A stretch of 64,000 nucleotides of DNA, from positions 12,428,550-12,492,549 of the forward strand of contig NC_090404.1 in assembly GCF_036365525.1 (NCBI RefSeq), read 5' to 3'. Position 1 is the stretch's first letter; each line of letters opens with the position of its first letter. Shown here piece after piece: positions 14,945 to 46,554 of this stretch. The notes beneath the pieces are model-generated. The model made no database searches. It was given only the letters and a program-made list of their open reading frames with translations, and had not been told where the DNA came from. Made by a program: the position numbers and the translations under genes. The stretch comes from Heterodontus francisci (Eukaryota).

Positions 14945-15472
14945 CCTCACCGCACAATAATAGCCAGTTCCGTCCTCCACACTCAGATCGCTTATATTGA
15001 GATAATCGTTCCTTTTAGACTTATCAGCAGCCGCCAGATATTGTCCTGAGATTTCGTTTCCCTTCAGTGCAACTAGTTTGCTAATAATTCAGCTTGGAGG
15101 CTGTGCTGGTTTCTGCTGATACCATTGCATGTAATCAATATTCAGGGTTGTATATTCGCAATCTAACTGCACCGAACCCCCTTCTGACACGGTTATTGTC
15201 ACCGGAGACTGAGTTACTGCATCTGCACATAGTCCGCCTGTGAATGTAGAGGAATAAAGAACAGGAGGTTAAGGAGGATCGGTCTAAAATTGTGTCTATC
15301 TGTGTAAGTGCGCGTAATCTTCCATCTACCAGGCTGTCCACCATATGGATCTTTCTGATCGCAAATTATACTAAACCCGAGAACAAGCTCTTAGCAGAAA
15401 TATGACGACGTGCCTATTGAACCTAATCCAGTACTTACTGTCCAACACAGCCGCCAGTATTATCAGAAACAT
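14945..15472 (-). pseudogene. TCR alpha/delta V with a single premature stop (leader 15472-15439, V exon 15237-14945)
   Basis: MFLIILAAVLD/SGLCADAVTQSPVTITVSEGGSVQLDCEYTTLNIDYMQWYQQKPAQPPS*IISK...DLSVEDGTGYYCAVR; RSS CACAGCG (14944-14938), 23 bp, ACAAAAACC (14914-14906). Confidence 0.92.
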
Positions 15473-17090: not shown

Positions 17091-18023
17091 TAATAGTGCT
17101 AGCAGTCCTATCCCGTGTCTGCTTTCCCCCAATATGTAATGAATGTGGCAGTACCGGAGCTCTTATAGAGAGGCAGAGTTATATAATTTCTCAAGAAGAT
17201 GTTATTATTGAATTCCGTTCATTACAAATGGCTACTGCTCCCAGTAACCCCGCCCTTTGCTGTCTCTCTGACCTGTGAGTGGAAGGAGTAGAAGATGTGG
17301 AAATGAATATTAAAATGTGACTGACACACACCCTGGGATCTGATTTCTGAATCCATCCACTCTACCGTTAGTGGAGATCGCTGTGAAAGGAGAGAAAGAC
17401 AAACCTAAACCGTCTGTATTTTGTTTCTTTTTCTGCTCGACACGTTTTTTCTTTCCTGAGCTAAAGTTATAAGGACAGTTTTTTCATGTCCTGCTGGTAT
17501 TGGGTTCTTGTTATGAGAATCCGCCCTACACCTCACCCTGGAGGCTCTGAACCCGCTCCCTGTGCTCTGCTCCCGCCACGTTTAGCCGATGAGCCGCAAA
17601 TTGCAAAAAATTAAAGCACCGATGCGCCGGTCCCTCACTTCCCTCTCTTCACAAGTCCAAAACCTGTAGATTATGGATATTTAAGTTAATCATTACGAAC
17701 ACAAAGAATGTCAGAATTCGACAGGAAGAATTTAATCAGCATTTCAAATTGAAACCAGGGAAGAGAGTGCTGAAAACGCTTTTTAAACTACAGCAAGGCT
17801 TCATTCTTTATGTCTGTTCACTTGTTTGTTCAGTTGCAGCAGATATCACCATTCCAATATGTAGGATCTATAAATCACTCCAGCAAAATACAGAATCATT
17901 GTTAGTTCATGCGTTAACTGATCGGTGAGGAAGATCTCACTGGAGTCACGGTTACCAGTGTCCTGAAGATGAAGATACTGGAATTTGAGAGGAAGAATTG
18001 ATGCCAGAATAAACAAAATCTAG

Positions 18024-18281
18024 TAACAATCCCATGTTTCTGGTTACAATAACCAGACAAGTTTCAGTCCCCCGCCGCACGTCTCTAACAACGGAACCAT
18101 TCCCCATATAAGGACAGTGACTGTCGCCCAGCTCGGGGTGTTTCCATTCACTGGAAGCCAGCTCGCCACCTACCGGTCTCACAGCACCACTGAGGACACA
18201 AGGAAGTGAGGTGGTGCGAGCATCTTGAGACATGATAGCAGATTATTGAGGGTGGGGATTAAAACGGGTGTCTTCAAATAT
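18024..18281 (+). repeat. left inverted-repeat arm flanking V (pairs with 19041-19276)
   Basis: CGGAACCATTCC..CAGCTC.CCACCTAC..CAGATTATTGA.GGTGGGGATTA..TCTTCAAATAT is mirrored at 19041-19276. Confidence 0.85.
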
Positions 18282-18313
18282 CTAACACCCGTTTTACAGA
18301 GCGGACAGCGAAA

Positions 18314-18783
18314 ATGCGGATACTCAGCATCTGGGTTGTGTGGGGAGCATTTCTGACAGGTAATTGTGGAATAAACACATTTCATCTTTTCTCTCATTTC
18401 TTAAACATGGTTTAAATCTGAATTTTAAACAACCGATGGCCTAATCTTTTCCTGTTCAAACATTTTGTTTTCAGATTGGAGTCATGGAGATTCTGTCACT
18501 CAGCAGCTGCCCTCAGATGTTAAGGCCGCAGGAGAAGCGGTGACTTTAAGATGTACATATGATACTACACAGAGCAACTATTATTTATACTGGTACCGGC
18601 AACACAAAGATATAGAGCCCGAGTTTATCCTGAGGAAATACTCAGGCAGTGGTGAATATAAAGCAGATTTTGCGAAAATCCGTTTCGTTGCTAAGCTCCA
18701 AAAATGGAATAAATGCATCAGTTTAACCATCTCGGGGCTGCAGCTGACTGACGCTGCCATGTATTACTGCGCTCTCCAGGACT
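18314..18783 (+). CDS. TRAV/TRDV: open TCR alpha/delta V segment (leader 18314-18359, V exon 18475-18783)
   Basis: MRILSIWVVWGAFLT/DWSHGDSVTQ..VTLRC..LYWYRQ..LQLTDAAMYYCALQD; phase-1 GT..AG intron. Confidence 0.95.
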
Positions 18784-18822
18784 CACAGTGATGGAAAGCA
18801 GTCACACCCCTGTACAAAAACT
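18784..18822 (+). promoter_or_regulatory. 23-RSS
   Basis: CACAGTG, 23-bp spacer, ACAAAAACT. Confidence 0.95.
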
Positions 18823-19040
18823 GCCTTTGGACAGTGGGTCGAAGCTAATGTCTGTTGGGGGTTGTGTAGAATCGCGGGCAGATGTGCAGCGACAATGTGC
18901 AGCACGCTGTCAGGCGTTCAAACACACACCGAGAGGAAACCAAATTAACCTCGGATCAAACTGTCACCCAACTTTTTCCAGGAGCGGCCAAGAAATCAAA
19001 CTGCAGAATCCAAATAGACAGACAGATCCAGCACAGAAAC

Positions 19041-19276
19041 ATATTTGAAGACACTCCTTCTAATCCCCACCTTCAATAATCTGCTGTCGTATCTCAAGTT
19101 GCTCTCCAGTGATACTATCAGGCCTGTAGGTGGTGAGCTGGCAGTAAGTGAATGGACACATCCCCGAGCTGAGCTGCAGTCACTCTCCTTAAAGGAGGAA
19201 TGGTTCCGCTGTTAAAAGCCAAGGTGGGAATGAAATCCTGGTCTGTTACTTATCCCCAGCAAGCTCAGGATTGTTA
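19041..19276 (-). repeat. right inverted-repeat arm flanking V
   Basis: Reverse complement of 18024-18281 with a small internal deletion. Confidence 0.85.
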
Positions 19277-19402
19277 ATGCTGACAGTAAACATTCCATCA
19301 CGAAGGAGACAAACTGAAGCACAATGGGCATTGAGGGAACTCTGTGTCTGGGGCTTGCTTGAAAGATCACAGACACTACCTTGGCAGATCCGTTCATTGG
19401 GT

Positions 19403-25021: not shown

Positions 25022-25339
25022 CAGCCTCTAGAGTACACAATGCACAGTACAATTGCAATTTCAAAACACGACACCAGCTCCGACTGAATTAACGTTTCGG
25101 GAAGGACAGAGCATAACACTGGAATGTAGTTACTCGACAACCTACACTAACCCACCTCTGTTGTGGGAAATCCAATATCGCAGAGAAGCTCTGAGAGATT
25201 AATGAAGAGATTAGGCTATGAGCAGGGAGATAAGTTTCCAGATTTCTCCAACAAGTTCTCTGCTGATTTGCACAAAGGATGCAATTATTGCCGCGGTCCT
25301 TCTCTCCAACACCGTCGGGTGTTTCTGTGCCATGAGTGC
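25022..25339 (+). pseudogene. TCR V pseudogene
   Basis: ..TELTFREGQSITLECSYSTTYTNPPLLW..FPDFSNKFSADL..FCAMS with frameshifts and a stop; RSS CAAACTG (25340-25346), 25 bp, ACAAAAACC (25372-25380). Confidence 0.8.
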
Positions 25340-25402
25340 CAAACTGCTGCAGAGATGCAGGGGATTCCCAAACAAAAACCTACACTGACAGTTCCAATTA
25401 GT

Positions 25403-25420
25403 GCTCAGCAGAGGGCGCTC
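25403..25420 (+). promoter_or_regulatory. CTCF-like motif just 3' of a V RSS
   Basis: TCAGCAGAGGGCGC, ~24 bp past the nonamer. Confidence 0.55.
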
Positions 25421-26331
25421 TCGCACCGATAAACAGAATCAATAATTCAGCCGCAGGGTCACAGGGACCTTCCAAAAAGATCACAAAACAGCACAACACT
25501 CAACTAGAACAGGTTAGGACCGCTTGGGGAATTATGTTAGTTGATTTCAACTCGCATTTATACTAAAGCTGAACTTAATAAATCCATTTGTGGCGCTTTA
25601 ATTTACTTTTTGTCCTTTGCTGCCCTTTCCGTGCCTGCCTGCAATATTGAGAATCCCTTTCCCCATCTCCCCTGTCAGTTTCCATGAGCTTTTGGCCGCG
25701 GCCTCTTCACAGGGTTTGTGTGTTCAGAGTGTGTGGCTGGTGCAGAGACAGTTTATACACAATGAACATATTTCGCAAGGTATTGTCTGTGATCTTTAAA
25801 ACAAGCGCCAAGCATAGAGTTCCTTCAATGTCCAGTGTGCTTCAGGGTGTCTCCTTAATGCTGTCACCGTTAGCAATCCTGAGCTTGCTGGTGATAATTA
25901 ACAGACCAGGGTTTCATTCCTGCCCCTGGTTTCTAACAGCGGAACCATTCCCCCTATAAGGATAGTGAGTGTAGACTAACTTGGGGTGTTTCCACTCACT
26001 GGCAGCCAGCTCACCACCTACTGGTCTCACAGCTCCACTGGGGACACAAGAAAATTTGCTGAGAGCAACCTGAGATACAACAGCAGATTATTGAGGGTGG
26101 GGATGAGAACAGATGTCTTCAAATATGTTTCTGTGCTGGATCTGTCTGTCCAATTTGATTTTGCAGTTTGTTTTCTCGGCCGCTCCTGGAAACAGTTGGA
26201 TCCGAGCTTAATTTGGTTTCCTCTCGGTGTGTGTTTGAGCGCCTGACAGCGCGCTGCACATTGTGGCTGCACATCTGCCCGCGATTCTACACAACCCCCA
26301 ACAGACCGGAGCTCCCACCCAGTCTAAAGAC

Positions 26332-26370
26332 AGTTTTTGTACAGGGGTGAGACTGCTTTCCATCACTGTG
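26332..26370 (-). promoter_or_regulatory. 23-RSS
   Basis: CACAGTG (26370-26364), 23-bp spacer, ACAAAAACT (26340-26332). Confidence 0.95.
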
Positions 26371-26836
26371 AGGCTGAGAGCGCAGTAATACACGGCAGCG
26401 TCAGTCAGCTGCAGCCCCGAGATGGTTAAACTGATGAATTTAGTCGAGGTCTGGAGCTTTACAGAGAAACGGCTCTCAGCAAAATCTGCTTTAACTTCAG
26501 CACCGCCTGAGTATTTCCACAGTATAAACTCGGGCTGTGTATCTGGGTGTTGCCGGTACCAGTATAAATAATAGTTGCTCTGTGTAGTATCATAGGTACA
26601 GTTTAAAGTTACCGCTTCTCCCTCGGCCTTAACATCTGAGGACAGCTGCTGAGTGACAGAATCTCCATGACTGCAATCTGAAAAACAAGTTTAAACAGGA
26701 AAAGATCAGACCGACGACTGTTTAAAATTCAGATTTAAACCATGTTTGAGAAATAAGAGAAAAGATGAAATGTGTTTAATCCGCAATTACCTGTCAGAAA
26801 TGCTCCCCACACAACCCAGATGCTGAGCAGCTGCAT
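26371..26836 (-). CDS. TRAV/TRDV: open TCR alpha/delta V segment (leader 26836-26791, V exon 26677-26371); only its 3' tip appears in the ORF track
   Basis: MQLLSIWVVWGAFLT/DCSHGDSVTQQLSSDVKAEGEAVTLNCTYDTTQSNYYLYWYRQHPDTQPEFILWKYSGGAEVKADFAESRFSVKLQTSTKFISLTISGLQLTDAAVYYCALS, no stops. Confidence 0.95.
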
Positions 26837-28027
26837 TGTCGCTGTCCGCTCTGTAAAAGGGGAGTTGGATATTTGAAGACACCCGTTCTAATCCCCACCC
26901 TCAATAATCTGCTGTCGTGTCTCAGGATTCTTCTACCTCACTTCCTTGTGTCCTCAGTGGTGCTGTGAGACCGGTAGGTGGTGAGCTGGCTGTCAGTGAA
27001 TGGAAACACCCCGAGCTGGGCTTCAGTCACTGTCCCGATATGGGAAATGGTTCCGCTGTTAGAGACGTGGGGCGGGGACTGAAACCCTTGTCTGGTTATT
27101 GTAATCGGAAACATGGGATTGTCAATGAATTTGATTCGTTCTGGCGTCAATTCTTCCTTTCAAATTCCAGTAGCTTCACCATTATCACAGATCTTCCTCA
27201 CCGATCAGTTCACTAGCGAAATATCAATGATTCTGTATTTTGCCAGAACGATTTATAGATCCGTCATGTTGGAAGGATGATATCTGCTGTGACTGAACAA
27301 ACAACTGAACATACATAAATAGAATAAACACTTGGTGTAATTTAGAAAGCGTTTCCAGCACTGTGGTTGCATTTAAAATAATATTTACATTCTTTCTGTT
27401 GAATTCTGGCACTTCGTGTTCGTAATTGTTAATTTGCGATTTTGGATTTGTGATAAACGGGAACTGAGGGAAAGGCGCACCCCTGCTTTTTAAAAACAAT
27501 TTCCAGCTCGTCGGCTGCAAATGGGCGGGAGAAGAGCGCGGGGAGTGGGTTCAAATGCTCCAGGACGGGTTCTCATTAAAATACTCAACACCAGCAGGAC
27601 ATGAAAAACTGTTGTTACAACTTTAGCTCCGATTAGTGAAAAGGAATAGAGCAGAAAAAGACACAAACTACAAGTGGTATCAGTTTGTATTTCACGCCTT
27701 TAACATCGATCTCCACTGATGGTACAGTTAACGGCTCTAAAAATCCAATCCCAGAGTGTGTCTGCCATTCACATTTTAATATTCTTTCCCCAACTTCCAT
27801 ACCTTCCACTCACTTGTCCTGTTCACTGGTTAGTGCCAAAAGCCAATCCTTTGATCTGTGGATGCTTCTTTGGTGAGGACTATTGTCCGATGTACCTTCC
27901 CAATCCATTGAGGCAAGTTGATTTCAACTATTAAAGTTCAATACATTCCAAAATTTACTCAGATTTTGGAGAAACAGAACTCACCTCGCTGCCCGGGGTC
28001 CGATCCAAATAAAGGAACAGTGTTATC

Positions 28028-28046: not shown

Positions 28047-28482
28047 TATTGAGAAATATTCAGATGTCCGTGAACAAGGCGTGAGAAATTCTGTGTTGAG
28101 ACATTGCCTGATCTGCCAGTTCCTGTTTATAGAAAGAGCGATTGGAATGGTTCTGAATTTATATGCCGAAGGTTTAGAACCTTTAATCTGTAGTCTGCAA
28201 GAAGGAAATGTATTCAATTATGGGTAAATCGTGGAGACAGGTGATAATGAAGAACACATAGACAGGGTAAGGGTATAGTAAAAGTTGAAGGGAGTCAAGG
28301 CATTAAGGATTGAAGATAAAGTTCATTTTTCTTATAAATGCGCGTTGTAATCACAAACTGATATAACTGCACAAAGGAGAATCGACTGCTCTTGTTTATT
28401 TTTGTGTTTTATTGCAATTTTAAGAAGGTTCCTGCGACTCTCACAGAGGAGGCTGAATTATTGCTTCTGTTTATCGGTGTGA

Positions 28483-28500
28483 GGGCGCCCTCTGGTGAGC
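28483..28500 (-). promoter_or_regulatory. CTCF-like motif just 3' of a V RSS
   Basis: TCACCAGAGGGCGCC, ~23 bp past the nonamer; flank is paralogous to 25385-25450. Confidence 0.6.
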
Positions 28501-28561
28501 TGTAACTGGAATTCTCCAGTGAATTTTTGTCTGCAATCTGCTTTTTCTCTGCAGCAGTGTG

Positions 28562-29540
28562 AGGCTCATGGCGCAGAAATACAGGGCGGTGTCAGAGATC
28601 AGGGCGCTGTGGATCGTTAGCTGGATAATCTTGGCAATTTTACTGAACGTAGAAGAAAATCGGTCAGTGAAGTCGAGGTTCCAGTATCCAGTTTACTATC
28701 CCTCTATAGAGATAAAACACGTACTGTGAGGCTGCCTGGGGCGCTGACTGTTGTGCCTAATACGCACTTACTCTTAAAGAATCCACGGAATCCGATTGAT
28801 GAAAGGTATATCAATATTTTATTCACAAACTATATCATCAAATACAAGCTCTCACTAACATGCACAGTATCAAAACTCACCAAAGTATAAGCTCTCACTA
28901 CTTGCACCTTATCCTCCCCATCAAGGCACGAGGTGATCAGTCTCGCACTTGTGGCTGCTCTACTGAGCCATTGACTCAGGGGTATCTTCTCGAGAGTTCT
29001 TCCCCGGGGTTCTCGTGCCTTTCCCAGTTTCAGTCAGGGATTAAATCTTGTTTCCAAAACCCTCCCCTCTTACTTACTCATAGGGGCATAATGACATAAT
29101 GAAAATTCCTTATTTGGCTCAGTGAGAACCTGTTCAACATTTTACAATTTCCCATCGTCTACTATGAGTCTAATCATATCTGGTGTCCATGACGACTCCT
29201 TTATCTGCTACGTGCAAGGACAGTGTCTGGGATCACAATATGTCTTTTCTATACTGTCTACAATTCCTCAGCCATCCGTGTGCTGTGACGCCTTTCTACC
29301 CAGCCTCCCCGCACCCCCATGCTTTAACACACTGTTCATTGTTGTGTGACTTCCCCTTTGTTTAAACGAAGTTCTTATGTGTTTTTACTATATGTGTTTT
29401 TACTGGATCTACATGACTATACCAGAATATAGAAGGGTTAGCAGTTCTTGTTTTCAAGGAACAGGTTAGTGTGATATAACTTTCCTCTTCAACCATTATT
29501 TCAGGAAACTGCTGTTCCAATGTGTCTCGGTGGCTCCATT
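28562..29540 (-). pseudogene. TCR V pseudogene split by a solo LTR
   Basis: 5' half WSHRDTLEQQFPEIMVEEESYITLTCSLKTRTANPSIFWYS (29540-29414); 3' half QRPRQP..QYVF..DFTDRFSSTFSKIAKIIQLTIHSALISDTALYFCAMS; RSS CACACTG, 24 bp, ACAAAAATT (28561-28522). Confidence 0.88.
28749..29413 (-). mobile_element. solo LTR (665 bp)
   Basis: TG...CA termini; 4-bp TSD TGAC at 28745-28748 and 29414-29417; AATAAA on the minus strand near 28820; removing it restores V FR2 WYSQRP. Confidence 0.8.
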
Positions 29541-43668: not shown

Positions 43669-43974
43669 ATTCCAGTTCCCTGGTGTCCCAGAGTACGCCT
43701 CAACAAACTTCTGCTGCCGGCAACACCGTTACTTTAAGCTGCGAATATTCAGGGTTCTGTCAGTGCACAGTACACTGGTACCGTCAGTCCCCAGGGCAGG
43801 CTCCGAAATACCTGATTCAGACATACACTTCAGGAAAGCAGAATGAAGATAATGCAGCCGGGGGACGAATTTCTGCTTCTCTCGATCCTGCCGAGAAAAT
43901 CAGCCAGTTAAAAATTGCCAAATTGCAACTGAGCGACTCCGCTGTTTATTACTGTGCACTGAGTCAGCGTGAAG
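43669..43974 (+). CDS. TRDV: open 'supporting' TCR delta V of the NAR-TCR cassette (no conventional leader)
   Basis: Acceptor TCCTGCAG in the same phase as the J donor; DSSSLVSQSTPQQTSAAGNTVTLSCEYSGFCQCTVHWYRQ..LQLSDSAVYYCALSQRE; non-canonical CDR1 Cys; no typical leader nearby. Confidence 0.88.
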
Positions 43975-44270
43975 CACAGTGACACAGAGCACGGAGAGAG
44001 CTGTACAAAACCCTGAACATTGTAGGGATTACAGACACACAGTGACACAGAGCACGGAGAGAGCTGTACAAAAACCTGAACATGGTGGGGTTTGCAGCCA
44101 TACAGTGATGCAGAGCATGGAGAGAGCTGTTCAGAAACCTGAACATAGTGGGGATTACAGCCATAGAGTGATACAGAGCACGGAGAGAGCTGTACAGAAA
44201 CCTGAACATAGTGGGGATTACAGCCATAGAGTGATACAGAGCACGGAGAGAGCTGTACAGAAACCTGAAC
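43975..44270 (+). repeat. tandem array of five 23-RSSs (63-bp period)
   Basis: Heptamers at 43975, 44038, 44101, 44164 and 44227; nonamers at 44005, 44068, 44131, 44194 and 44257; all spacers 23 bp. Confidence 0.95.
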
Positions 44271-46554
44271 AGAGAACAACCACAGAAAAAATACGGCATG
44301 GAAGGAGGCTATTCAGCCAGTCGTGTCAGTGCTGGCTGGGAAAAAAAACTCGCCGCCCCATCTAATCCCACCTTCCAGCACCTGGTCCATAGTCTTGCTG
44401 GTTGCAGCACTTCAGGTGCCTGTCCAGATTCCTTTTAAAAGAATTGAAGTTTCTGCCTCTACCACCGTTCCTGGCACTGAATTCCAGACACCCTCTGGGT
44501 GAAAATGTTTTCCTCATGTCCCCTCTAATCCTTCTACTAACCACCTTAAATCTGTGCCCTCTGGTAATTGATCTCTACGCTAGGGGAAACAGGTCCTTCC
44601 TGTCTACTCTATCTAGGCCCCTCATATTTTCATACACCTCTATTAAATCACCCCTCAGCCTCCTCTGTTCGAAGGAAAACAACTCTAGCCTATCCAATCT
44701 TTCCTCATAGCTGCAACTTTTGAGTCCTGGCAACATTCTTGTAAATCTTCTCTCTATTCTCTCCAGAGCAATGATGTCCTTTCTGTAATGTGGTGACCAG
44801 AACTGTGCACAATACTCCAACTGTGGCCGAACCAGTGTTTTACACAGTTCCAGCATTACATCCCTGCTTTTGAATTCTATACCTTGGCCAATAAAGGAAA
44901 GCATTCCATATTCCTTCTTCATCACTCTATCTACCTGTCCTGCCACCTTCAGGGACCTGTGGACATGCACTCCAAGGTCTCTCACTTCTTCTACCCCTCT
45001 CAGTATCCTCTCTTTTATTATGTATTCTCTAGCATTATTTGTCCTCCCCAAATGCATTACCTCACACTTTTCTGGATCGAATTCCATTTGCCACTTTTCC
45101 GCCCACTCAACTAATCAATTGATATTTTTCTGGAGTCTAAGGCTATCCTCTTCACTATCAACTACACAGCCAATTTTTGTGTCATCGGCAAATTTCCCAA
45201 TTATGCCTCCAACATTTAAGTCCAAATCATTAATATATATCACAAACAGCAAGGGACCCAACACTGAGCCCTGTGTAACGCCACTGGAAACAGATTCCCA
45301 TTAACAAAAACATCCTTCTACCACTACCCTTTGTTTCCTGTCCCTGAGCCAATTCTAGATCGAGCCTGCTACATTACCCTGTATCCCATGGGCTTTCATT
45401 TTACTGACCAGTCTGCCATGTGGGACCTTGTCAAATGCCTTACTAAAATCCATGTGGATCAAATCCACTGCACTACTCTCATCAATGCTTCTTGTTACTT
45501 CTTCAAAAAACTCAATTGAGTTAGTAAGACATGACCTTCATTTAACAAATTCATGCTGACTATCCCTGATTAATCCTTGCCTTTCTAAATGGCAGTTTAT
45601 CCTGTCCCTCAGAATCGGTTCTAACAATTTACCCAGCACCGAGGTCAGACTGACTGGCATATAATTATCTGACCTATCCCTAGCACCCTTTTTAAACAAT
45701 GGTACAACATTCGCAGACCTCCTATCATCTGATAACTTTCCTTTATCTGGTGAGGATTTGAAGATAATTCTCAGCGCATCTGTTATTTCCTCCCTGGCTT
45801 CCTTTAACATCCTGGGATGCAATCCATCTGGCCCTGGCGTTTTATCCACTTGCAAAAATGACAGACCCTTTAGTACTTCCTCTCTCATTATGTTTATCGC
45901 ATCCAATATTTCACACTCCTCTTTAACCACAATGTCTACATCAACCCGCTCCTTTGTGAAGACAGAGACAAAAAGCTAATTATGAACCCTGACCACATCT
46001 TCTGCATCCACGCATAAGTTCCCTTCTACATCTCTGATAGGCCCGACCCTTTCCTTAGTTATCCTCTTGCTCTTAATGTACTGATAAAACATCTTTGGGG
46101 TTTCCTTAATTTTACCTGCCAATAATTTTTCATGTCCTCTCTTTGCTTTTCTAAATTCATTTTTTACTTCACCCTTGCACTTTCTGCTCTCCTCTAGGCT
46201 TTCTAAAGTATTAAGATTTTTGTCATCGTCATAAGCTTTCTTTTTCTGCTTCAACATAACCTGTAAGCTTCTAGATACCAGGGGCTCTCGAATTGGCAGT
46301 ACCACCCTTTATCTTTGTGGGGACATGCCGACACTGTGCCTGTAGTGTCTCGCTTTTGGATGCCTCCCACTGGTTTGCCACTGATTTTCCTCCAAGTAGC
46401 TGTATCCAGTCCTCTTTTACCAGGTCACCTCTCGGTTTCTCAAAATTTGCCTTCCACCAATTTAGAACTTTTACTCCTGTTTTATTTTTGTCCTTTTCCA
46501 TGATTATGCTAAAACGTACTGTATTGTGGTCACTATCTCCAAAATAGTCACCCA

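Follow-up and report, generated by a model that had tools for sequence, protein, structure and literature searches.

The window, that is, the whole stretch of 64,000 nucleotides from Heterodontus francisci that was analysed, contains a V gene of the TCR alpha/delta type that is enclosed by an inverted repeat, and this arrangement is real and subfamily-wide. Comparison of the copies in the locus indicates that the downstream arm of the repeat most probably derives from a paralogous V gene in the opposite orientation, whose orphaned and now decaying promoter was left behind when the gene was deleted.

The V gene, its two arms, and a second cassette

The two arms (18024..18281 on the forward strand and 19041..19276 on the reverse strand) share 185 of 230 aligned bases (80%) in a global alignment with a score of 230, while the best of 200 shuffles scored -10. 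The blastn core of the pair (18086-18281 against 19214-19041) shows 73% identity with an E value of 5e-30, and the downstream arm has a 23-bp deletion relative to the upstream arm. An earlier note on this DNA had claimed that inverted arms bracket the leader, the V exon, and the RSS, with one arm ending 32 bp before the ATG, the other lying about 220 bp past the RSS, and a loop of about 760 bp between them. The alignment bears out the bracketing, and the measured distances agree: there are 32 bp between the upstream arm and the leader ATG (18314), 218 bp separate the nonamer from the downstream arm, and the loop is 759 bp long.

The upstream arm occupies the promoter position, and its position and conservation suggest a promoter role. 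It is followed on the forward strand by a leader exon (18314..18359) of 15 codons and one base with a GT donor, an open V exon (18475..18783) in which Cys, Trp, and YYC are present, a canonical 23-RSS with a 23-bp spacer (18784..18822), and an ancestral post-RSS flank (18823..19040), which predates the downstream arm. The latter is an inverted, decaying copy of the upstream arm. The flank preceding the upstream arm (17275..18023, forward strand), referred to here as "up", is common to the subfamily, and in several paralogs it joins a preceding family-C V gene to the family-A promoter arm. The outer flank of the downstream arm (19277..19402, reverse strand), referred to as "down", lies elsewhere in the locus on the 3' side of a family-B V gene whose orientation is that of the arm; in the window its match stops at 19402, where a repeat starts. 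The V exon encodes a V-set domain (E value of 9.5e-15) and is 67% identical to a sawshark protein, its best named relative. The nearest relatives of this domain are TRAV/TRDV domains, and relatives of the V gene (18314-18783) occur within rearranged V-J-C chains. The locus can thus be read as shark TCR alpha/delta.

The whole cassette with both arms is found again, in inverted orientation, at 25757-27813 (80% identity), and homologous flanks (17275-19402) continue past both arms between the two cassettes of the window; both features were missed in the earlier note. The second cassette consists of a downstream arm (25874..26126, forward strand), a family member with leader, intron, open V exon, and 23-RSS (26332..26838, reverse strand), and an upstream arm (26869..27121, reverse strand), which pairs with the downstream arm at 81% identity. 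It is enclosed by two nested inverted repeats, the inner of which is formed by these arms. The outer one (72%) is formed by 25298..25579 on the forward strand, which comprises a V end, an RSS, a CTCF-like motif (25405-25418), and flank, and 28316..28603 on the reverse strand, which belongs to a broken family-C V gene located upstream of the second cassette and holds the end of this gene with its RSS and CTCF-like motif. Upstream of the second downstream arm and in its orientation lies a decayed family-B V exon with a degenerate RSS (25080..25380, forward strand; the exon itself spans 25080-25334), a remnant of a mirrored block.

The two cassettes of the window lie tail to tail with about 6.4 kb of repeats between them. 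At another place on the contig (9.327-9.330 Mb; L072:2920-5631), two complete two-arm cassettes lie tail to tail only 280 bp apart and form a 2.7-kb imperfect palindrome with four arms. The window also contains a divergent V exon (14945-15226, reverse strand) with 31% identity to families A and C, a family-C V gene split by an insertion (28567-29538, reverse strand), and long inverted pairs at 1-1286/62368-63653 (99%) and 9802-13239/50604-54057 (95%), which are probably recent retroelement copies.

Distribution of the arms and the shared junction

The genome-wide DNA search scored only the best candidates, and the best 40 of 70 candidate arm matches are all in the V locus of one contig. The same locus holds all 26 of the 26 exact matches to a 22-mer of the arm in the 6.0 Gb searched, all 42 of the 42 matches to a downstream-side query, and the best 40 of 47 candidates for the "down" flank, which is therefore locus-specific. 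A dispersed repeat was rejected as an identity of the arm because the scored arm, 22-mer, and downstream-side matches all fall within the V locus. An RSS pattern of the family gave 33 matches, 32 of them on the V-locus contig, with 16 forward and 17 reverse. Sixty larger stretches were taken, and 36 RSS-anchored cassettes were analysed, so that the family size is a lower bound. Twenty-seven of these cassettes have the upstream arm, eight belong to a distant subfamily with another promoter, and one is a fragment on another contig. This fragment (L082), an orphan outside the locus, retains a V 3' end, the RSS, and 113 bp of the flank that follows it.

The post-RSS flank is common to all members up to about 256 bp from the heptamer. 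The downstream arm is present in 22 of the 27 subfamily members and is joined in all of them at one point, 256 bp after the heptamer. Four of the 27 instead keep at this junction the sequence found in all eight distant members (one of the four with a deletion there), and the remaining one is uninformative because it is cut earlier. Since the armless members share the older flank with the distant members, the downstream arm is derived. The inner breakpoint of the arm corresponds to a position that, in a normal promoter, is 32 bp upstream of the ATG. As read from the alignments, no RSS is present at the breakpoint and microhomology amounts to about 1 base, and a RAG-made junction was rejected on these grounds. 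In all four armless members the V frame is open and the RSS canonical. The earlier note would have abandoned its proposal for a common dispersed repeat or for a family in which most V genes lack an arm; the arm is restricted to the V locus and most members carry it on the downstream side, and the feature is thus family-specific, though of simpler origin than had been supposed.

One of the origins considered in that note was a TIR or fold-back transposon that captured a V gene and moved it around the locus. Long imperfect inverted repeats that enclose a cargo and occur in many copies and in both orientations are features expected of such an element. However, a target-site duplication was found at the outer arm ends in none of the eight cassettes checked, and in all eight the same flanks adjoin the arm ends. 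Homology extends past the arms for about 750 bp on one side and for at least 125-730 bp on the other, no arm copies were found outside the V locus in the search described above, and armless and single-arm members exist. The arms were rejected as transposon ends because common flanks beyond both of them refute an arm-bounded unit, and transposition of the cassette is accordingly given next to no weight here.

The orphaned-promoter origin, by contrast, predicts a neighbouring gene on the strand of the downstream arm, and the outer flank of this arm runs colinearly into a V-RSS-CTCF unit on that strand. In L101, "down" lies 3' of a family-B V gene, and the run continues through the exon, RSS, CTCF motif, spacer, and first arm bases; this run aligns with the second cassette of the window over 818 columns (76%) and with L080 over 632 columns (79%). 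The same type of V-RSS-CTCF unit precedes the upstream arm in L081 and L072. In L097, the "down" flank, arm, and leader are contiguous on another V exon, but with its mixed diagnostic sites this locus could be a recombinant instead of a surviving donor. The loci taken yielded partial donor blocks (L097, L104, and L101) and no intact one.

A probable course of events, and the simplest one, can be proposed from the shared junction, the mirrored V remnant, the grouping of arms by position, and the higher substitution load of the downstream arms. A two-gene block, composed of a family B/C V gene, its RSS, a CTCF motif, a spacer, the promoter arm, and a family A V gene, may have come to lie in both orientations, tail to tail. 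One deletion could then have taken the second A gene and fused the flank of the first gene, 256 bp after its heptamer, to the promoter of the second, 32 bp before the ATG of that gene. Next, the one-gene, two-arm cassette would have been duplicated across the locus, with its 3' flank swapped among paralogs, and the stranded arm would no longer have been under constraint.

The outer side of the downstream arms indicates further changes. The arm adjoins the "down" flank in 17 of 22 cases; in the other five it adjoins an upstream-type family-C flank and lacks the outer 110 bp (L077 was aligned), which suggests a later rearrangement or a second donor. Likewise, the two groups of downstream arms (11 and 3) may reflect two donors or an old conversion. 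On a tree of intron plus V exon, the label with or without arm changes five times, and armless L063 is sister to armed L061 (support 99/92). Inheritance of the arm was therefore not simply vertical, and 3' flanks were exchanged among paralogs.

Several rearranged relatives were also observed. L028, L030, L097, L098, L099, and L100 are chimeric pseudogenes in which either the 3' portion of another V exon is joined to the arm, at or close to the inner end of the latter, or a V of another family bears the leader that belongs to the arm; the inner end of the arm is a recurrent breakpoint in these pseudogenes. L110, L112, and L107 represent a divergent V family (about 28% identity to family A) with a long exon end and a canonical heptamer, which lies head to head with family-C genes and has flank pieces in common with family A.

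Evolution of the arms and their possible functions

A tree of 47 arms, each of at least 190 bases, groups the arms by position and not by gene: the downstream label changes twice, compared with 12.3 times when shuffled. Eleven downstream arms form a supported clade and three stand apart, both window copies among these three. In no case are the two arms of one cassette sisters.

These data bear on the proposal of the earlier note that the arms recombine with each other and flip the V gene. Such a flip, whether in the germline or somatic, would switch the gene between joining by deletion and joining by inversion. The arms would offer a substrate for this exchange, with about 250 bp of inverted homology separated by 759 bp, and a predicted single-strand fold pairs 183 bases between the arms (a figure without a shuffle control). 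The RSS matches of the family occur in both orientations (16 forward, 17 reverse), and L097 provides one ambiguous case of a downstream-type flank on a leader-bearing arm. A flip should leave "down" before the leader and "up" after the RSS; such swapped outer flanks occur in 0 of 22 two-arm cassettes in the one assembly analysed, in which somatic flips and flips segregating in the population are invisible. The 18 diagnostic sites show no clean upstream/downstream crossover, and orientation changes carry the flanks along. Among the eight matched cassettes, identity within a pair exceeds the mean identity with the arms of other genes in four and the best other arm in two, by less than 1 point, and in neither these cassettes nor the 47-arm tree are the arms of one unit homogenised or chimeric, L097 being ambiguous. 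An identity of 80% is, moreover, poor for homologous recombination. Flipping between the arms is therefore considered improbable, and the proposal is not supported in this assembly.

The downstream arm, on the other hand, diverges in the manner expected of an orphaned promoter. In the eight matched cassettes, from which near-identical duplicates were excluded, deviations from the commonest letter amount to 210/1992 in downstream arms and 79/2020 in upstream arms, that is, 2.7 times as many. The downstream load is 137/1361 (10.1%) at the 176 columns that are invariant upstream and 73/631 (11.6%) at the 80 variable ones; because these loads are similar, columns kept upstream are not spared downstream. 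Mean p-distances (36 pairs of nine cassettes; L080 minus and near-identical duplicates left out) are 0.087 for the upstream arm and 0.152 for the downstream arm, compared with 0.159 and 0.211 for the flank of the latter, 0.103 for the intron, 0.110 for the V exon, and 0.063 for the first 160 bp after the RSS. Truncated or internally deleted arms number 7 of 22 downstream and 2 of 27 upstream, which correspond to about 3-4 and 2 independent events, respectively. The downstream arms thus appear to be under relaxed constraint, with conversion among upstream arms as a confounder: the lower divergence of the upstream arms could reflect gene conversion and not selection.

A mirrored promoter firing antisense across the RSS was also put forward in the earlier note. 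Its descent and orientation stand, as the arm is a copy of promoter-position sequence directed antisense toward the RSS; its retention as a promoter fares less well, as the arm evolves like its flanks. Whatever its origin, the arm may nevertheless have been retained to make the RSS accessible to RAG, as an antisense promoter or enhancer that is lost on rearrangement; we regard this as unlikely but as deserving more weight than flipping. Promoter-position sequence points at the RSS from 218 bp away in a cassette type found in 22 of 27 members, and all 18 of the 18 diagnostic sites that distinguish the arm types lie in arm positions 11-95, so that the inner two thirds contain no separating site. 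In mouse, elements downstream of VH genes govern recombination, as stated in the available portions of PMC4914699 and PMC10390877. Against retention, the downstream load is similarly high at upstream-invariant and variable columns (10.1% vs 11.6%) and the same as in the flank, the V genes of the four armless members are open with canonical RSSs, and the conserved sequence downstream of the V gene is the 160 bp between the RSS and the arm, which is older than the arm. Furthermore, the V translation of L075, an armless distant member, is identical to that of a rearranged V-J-C chain (P0029) in the protein collection; together with the four open armless members, this implies that the arm is not needed in the wider family. 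The occurrence of the arm in 22 of 27 members is compatible with drift and would also be expected under selection. A more specific version, to which we likewise assign a low probability, is that the stranded promoter copy was recruited by the subfamily as a built-in promoter that is directed antisense at the RSS and, together with a conserved post-RSS enhancer, opens each gene for RAG; if true, this recruitment would explain the two-arm cassette in 22 of 27 members.

Two further roles of the arm were rejected. The first is that of a promoter for a separate antisense gene, as a leader-sized hydrophobic stretch (ATG at 19040-19042, 15 hydrophobic codons) begins at the inner end of the downstream arm. 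However, this stretch is ordinary post-RSS flank that is also found in armless and distant members, the ATG was created by the junction, and in this gene the stretch lacks a GT donor after it and the frame reaches a stop after 28 codons; an antisense leader exon was therefore rejected, and a separate gene can hardly be credited. The second is that of paired CTCF sites: in the six cassettes scanned, the best match to CCASYAGRKGGCRS has 2 mismatches (upstream arm at 18024-18281), and the other arms have at least 3.

RSS-adjacent elements and comparison with known systems

Three features next to the RSSs look more promising than the inverted repeat and may repay closer attention. The first 160 bp after the RSS (18823-18985 in the window, present in all members) are 92% identical between the two subfamilies (48 pairs), whereas their V exons are 69% identical and their promoters do not align (49%, the random level). 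This segment is a candidate V8E-like enhancer or a gene-conversion tract. By eye it contains what we take to be Runx-, E-box-, Ets-, and STAT5-like motifs.

The second feature is a CTCF motif of family B/C V genes. A consensus match with at most one mismatch lies about 25 bp after the nonamer in 12 of 15 V-ending pattern matches, while 407 kb of shuffled sequence gave 0 matches. These motifs are located at 25405-25418 (forward strand) and near 28497 (reverse strand) in the window and in L064, L066, L067, L072, L077, L080, L099, L101, and L109.

Third, a V exon of another family (43683-43970) is followed at 43976-44271 by 4.7 tandem 63-bp units, each with a 23-RSS or its remains, the second unit being a canonical RSS. 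The 56 matches to a spacer pattern all lie on this contig, many of them at 61-63-bp steps and including one array of about 13 periods, and stacked RSSs are thus family-wide. The first heptamer of the array puts a TGA in frame, so that joining at a later RSS would be non-productive yet would leave an RSS for a second try. The phrase "tandem RSS" was absent from the literature matches listed.

The B/C motifs parallel the RSS-associated CTCF sites of mouse proximal VH genes, which the accessible part of PMC6746451 places about 18 bp past the RSS with the consensus CCASYAGRKGGCRS. No description of RSS-adjacent CTCF motifs in shark was found in the literature searched. The downstream arm itself resembles V8E elements and other elements downstream of VH genes only in its position, being family-specific sequence just 3' of the RSS that is parted from the V gene on rearrangement. 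In the passages available, V8E elements are conserved and open without H3K4me3 (PMC10390877), and regulation downstream of VH RSSs involves CTCF/RAD21 and PAX5/IRF4 states (PMC4914699). Unlike V8E, which is conserved and is not described as a promoter copy in the available text of PMC10390877, the downstream arm is a promoter copy and is unconserved; the family-wide conservation expected of a V8E-type element is absent from it (0.152 against 0.159 for its flank). The better look-alike of V8E is the 160 bp between the RSS and the arm.

In mouse Igh, antisense transcription arises from PAIR elements. These elements are similar to the arm in being repeated and V-family-associated, and the part of PMC10390877 available links them to V recombination. 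However, PAIRs are separate intergenic elements and not mirrored V promoters. As far as PMC4914699 is accessible, antisense transcription is a weak predictor of VH use. The shark gene also shares a V-set exon and a 23-RSS with shark TCR alpha/delta V genes, as far as these are covered in the available text of PMC5931798 and, for locus linkage, PMC12227049; the accessible portions of these two papers contain no description of germline V flanks. Rearranged shark V genes undergo hypermutation according to the part of PMC5931798 available, and the downstream arm, being separated from the V gene by the rearrangement, cannot be what drives this process. No description of a V gene flanked by a mirrored promoter was found in a literature search made largely without subscription papers and without supplements, and the subfamily-wide arrangement is apparently undescribed in the literature searched. 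It offers a natural experiment, as a single locus contains near-identical V genes with the arm (22) and without it (4), in which V usage can be compared with the presence of a convergent promoter beside the RSS. If it is true that the arm alters V usage, this would represent a new way of licensing individual V genes for recombination.

Like TIR, fold-back, and Pack-type transposons, the shark cassettes have a host-gene cargo enclosed by long inverted repeats. In contrast to these, they show no target-site duplication, no dispersal, and homology past the arm ends, a caution that V genes may be bracketed by long inverted repeats that are not the ends of a transposon. Closer parallels are found in antigen-receptor loci themselves. 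According to the accessible text of PMC5859386, Igk and TCR alpha/delta each contain V genes and CTCF sites in either orientation, and in mouse Igk about half of the Vkappa genes point away from J and are joined by inversion. The shark locus resembles mouse Igk and other loci of the birth-and-death type in that V blocks were copied in both orientations and fragments were left behind. Under the birth-and-death model, V genes of antigen receptors arise by duplication and are lost by decay or deletion. Unlike the usual relics of this process, the shark relic consists of a promoter that lacks leader and exon, breaks off 32 bp upstream of the ATG, and lies beside a live RSS in most subfamily members, and as such it would record the rebuilding of the shark TCR alpha/delta locus by inverted duplication, deletion, and flank swapping.
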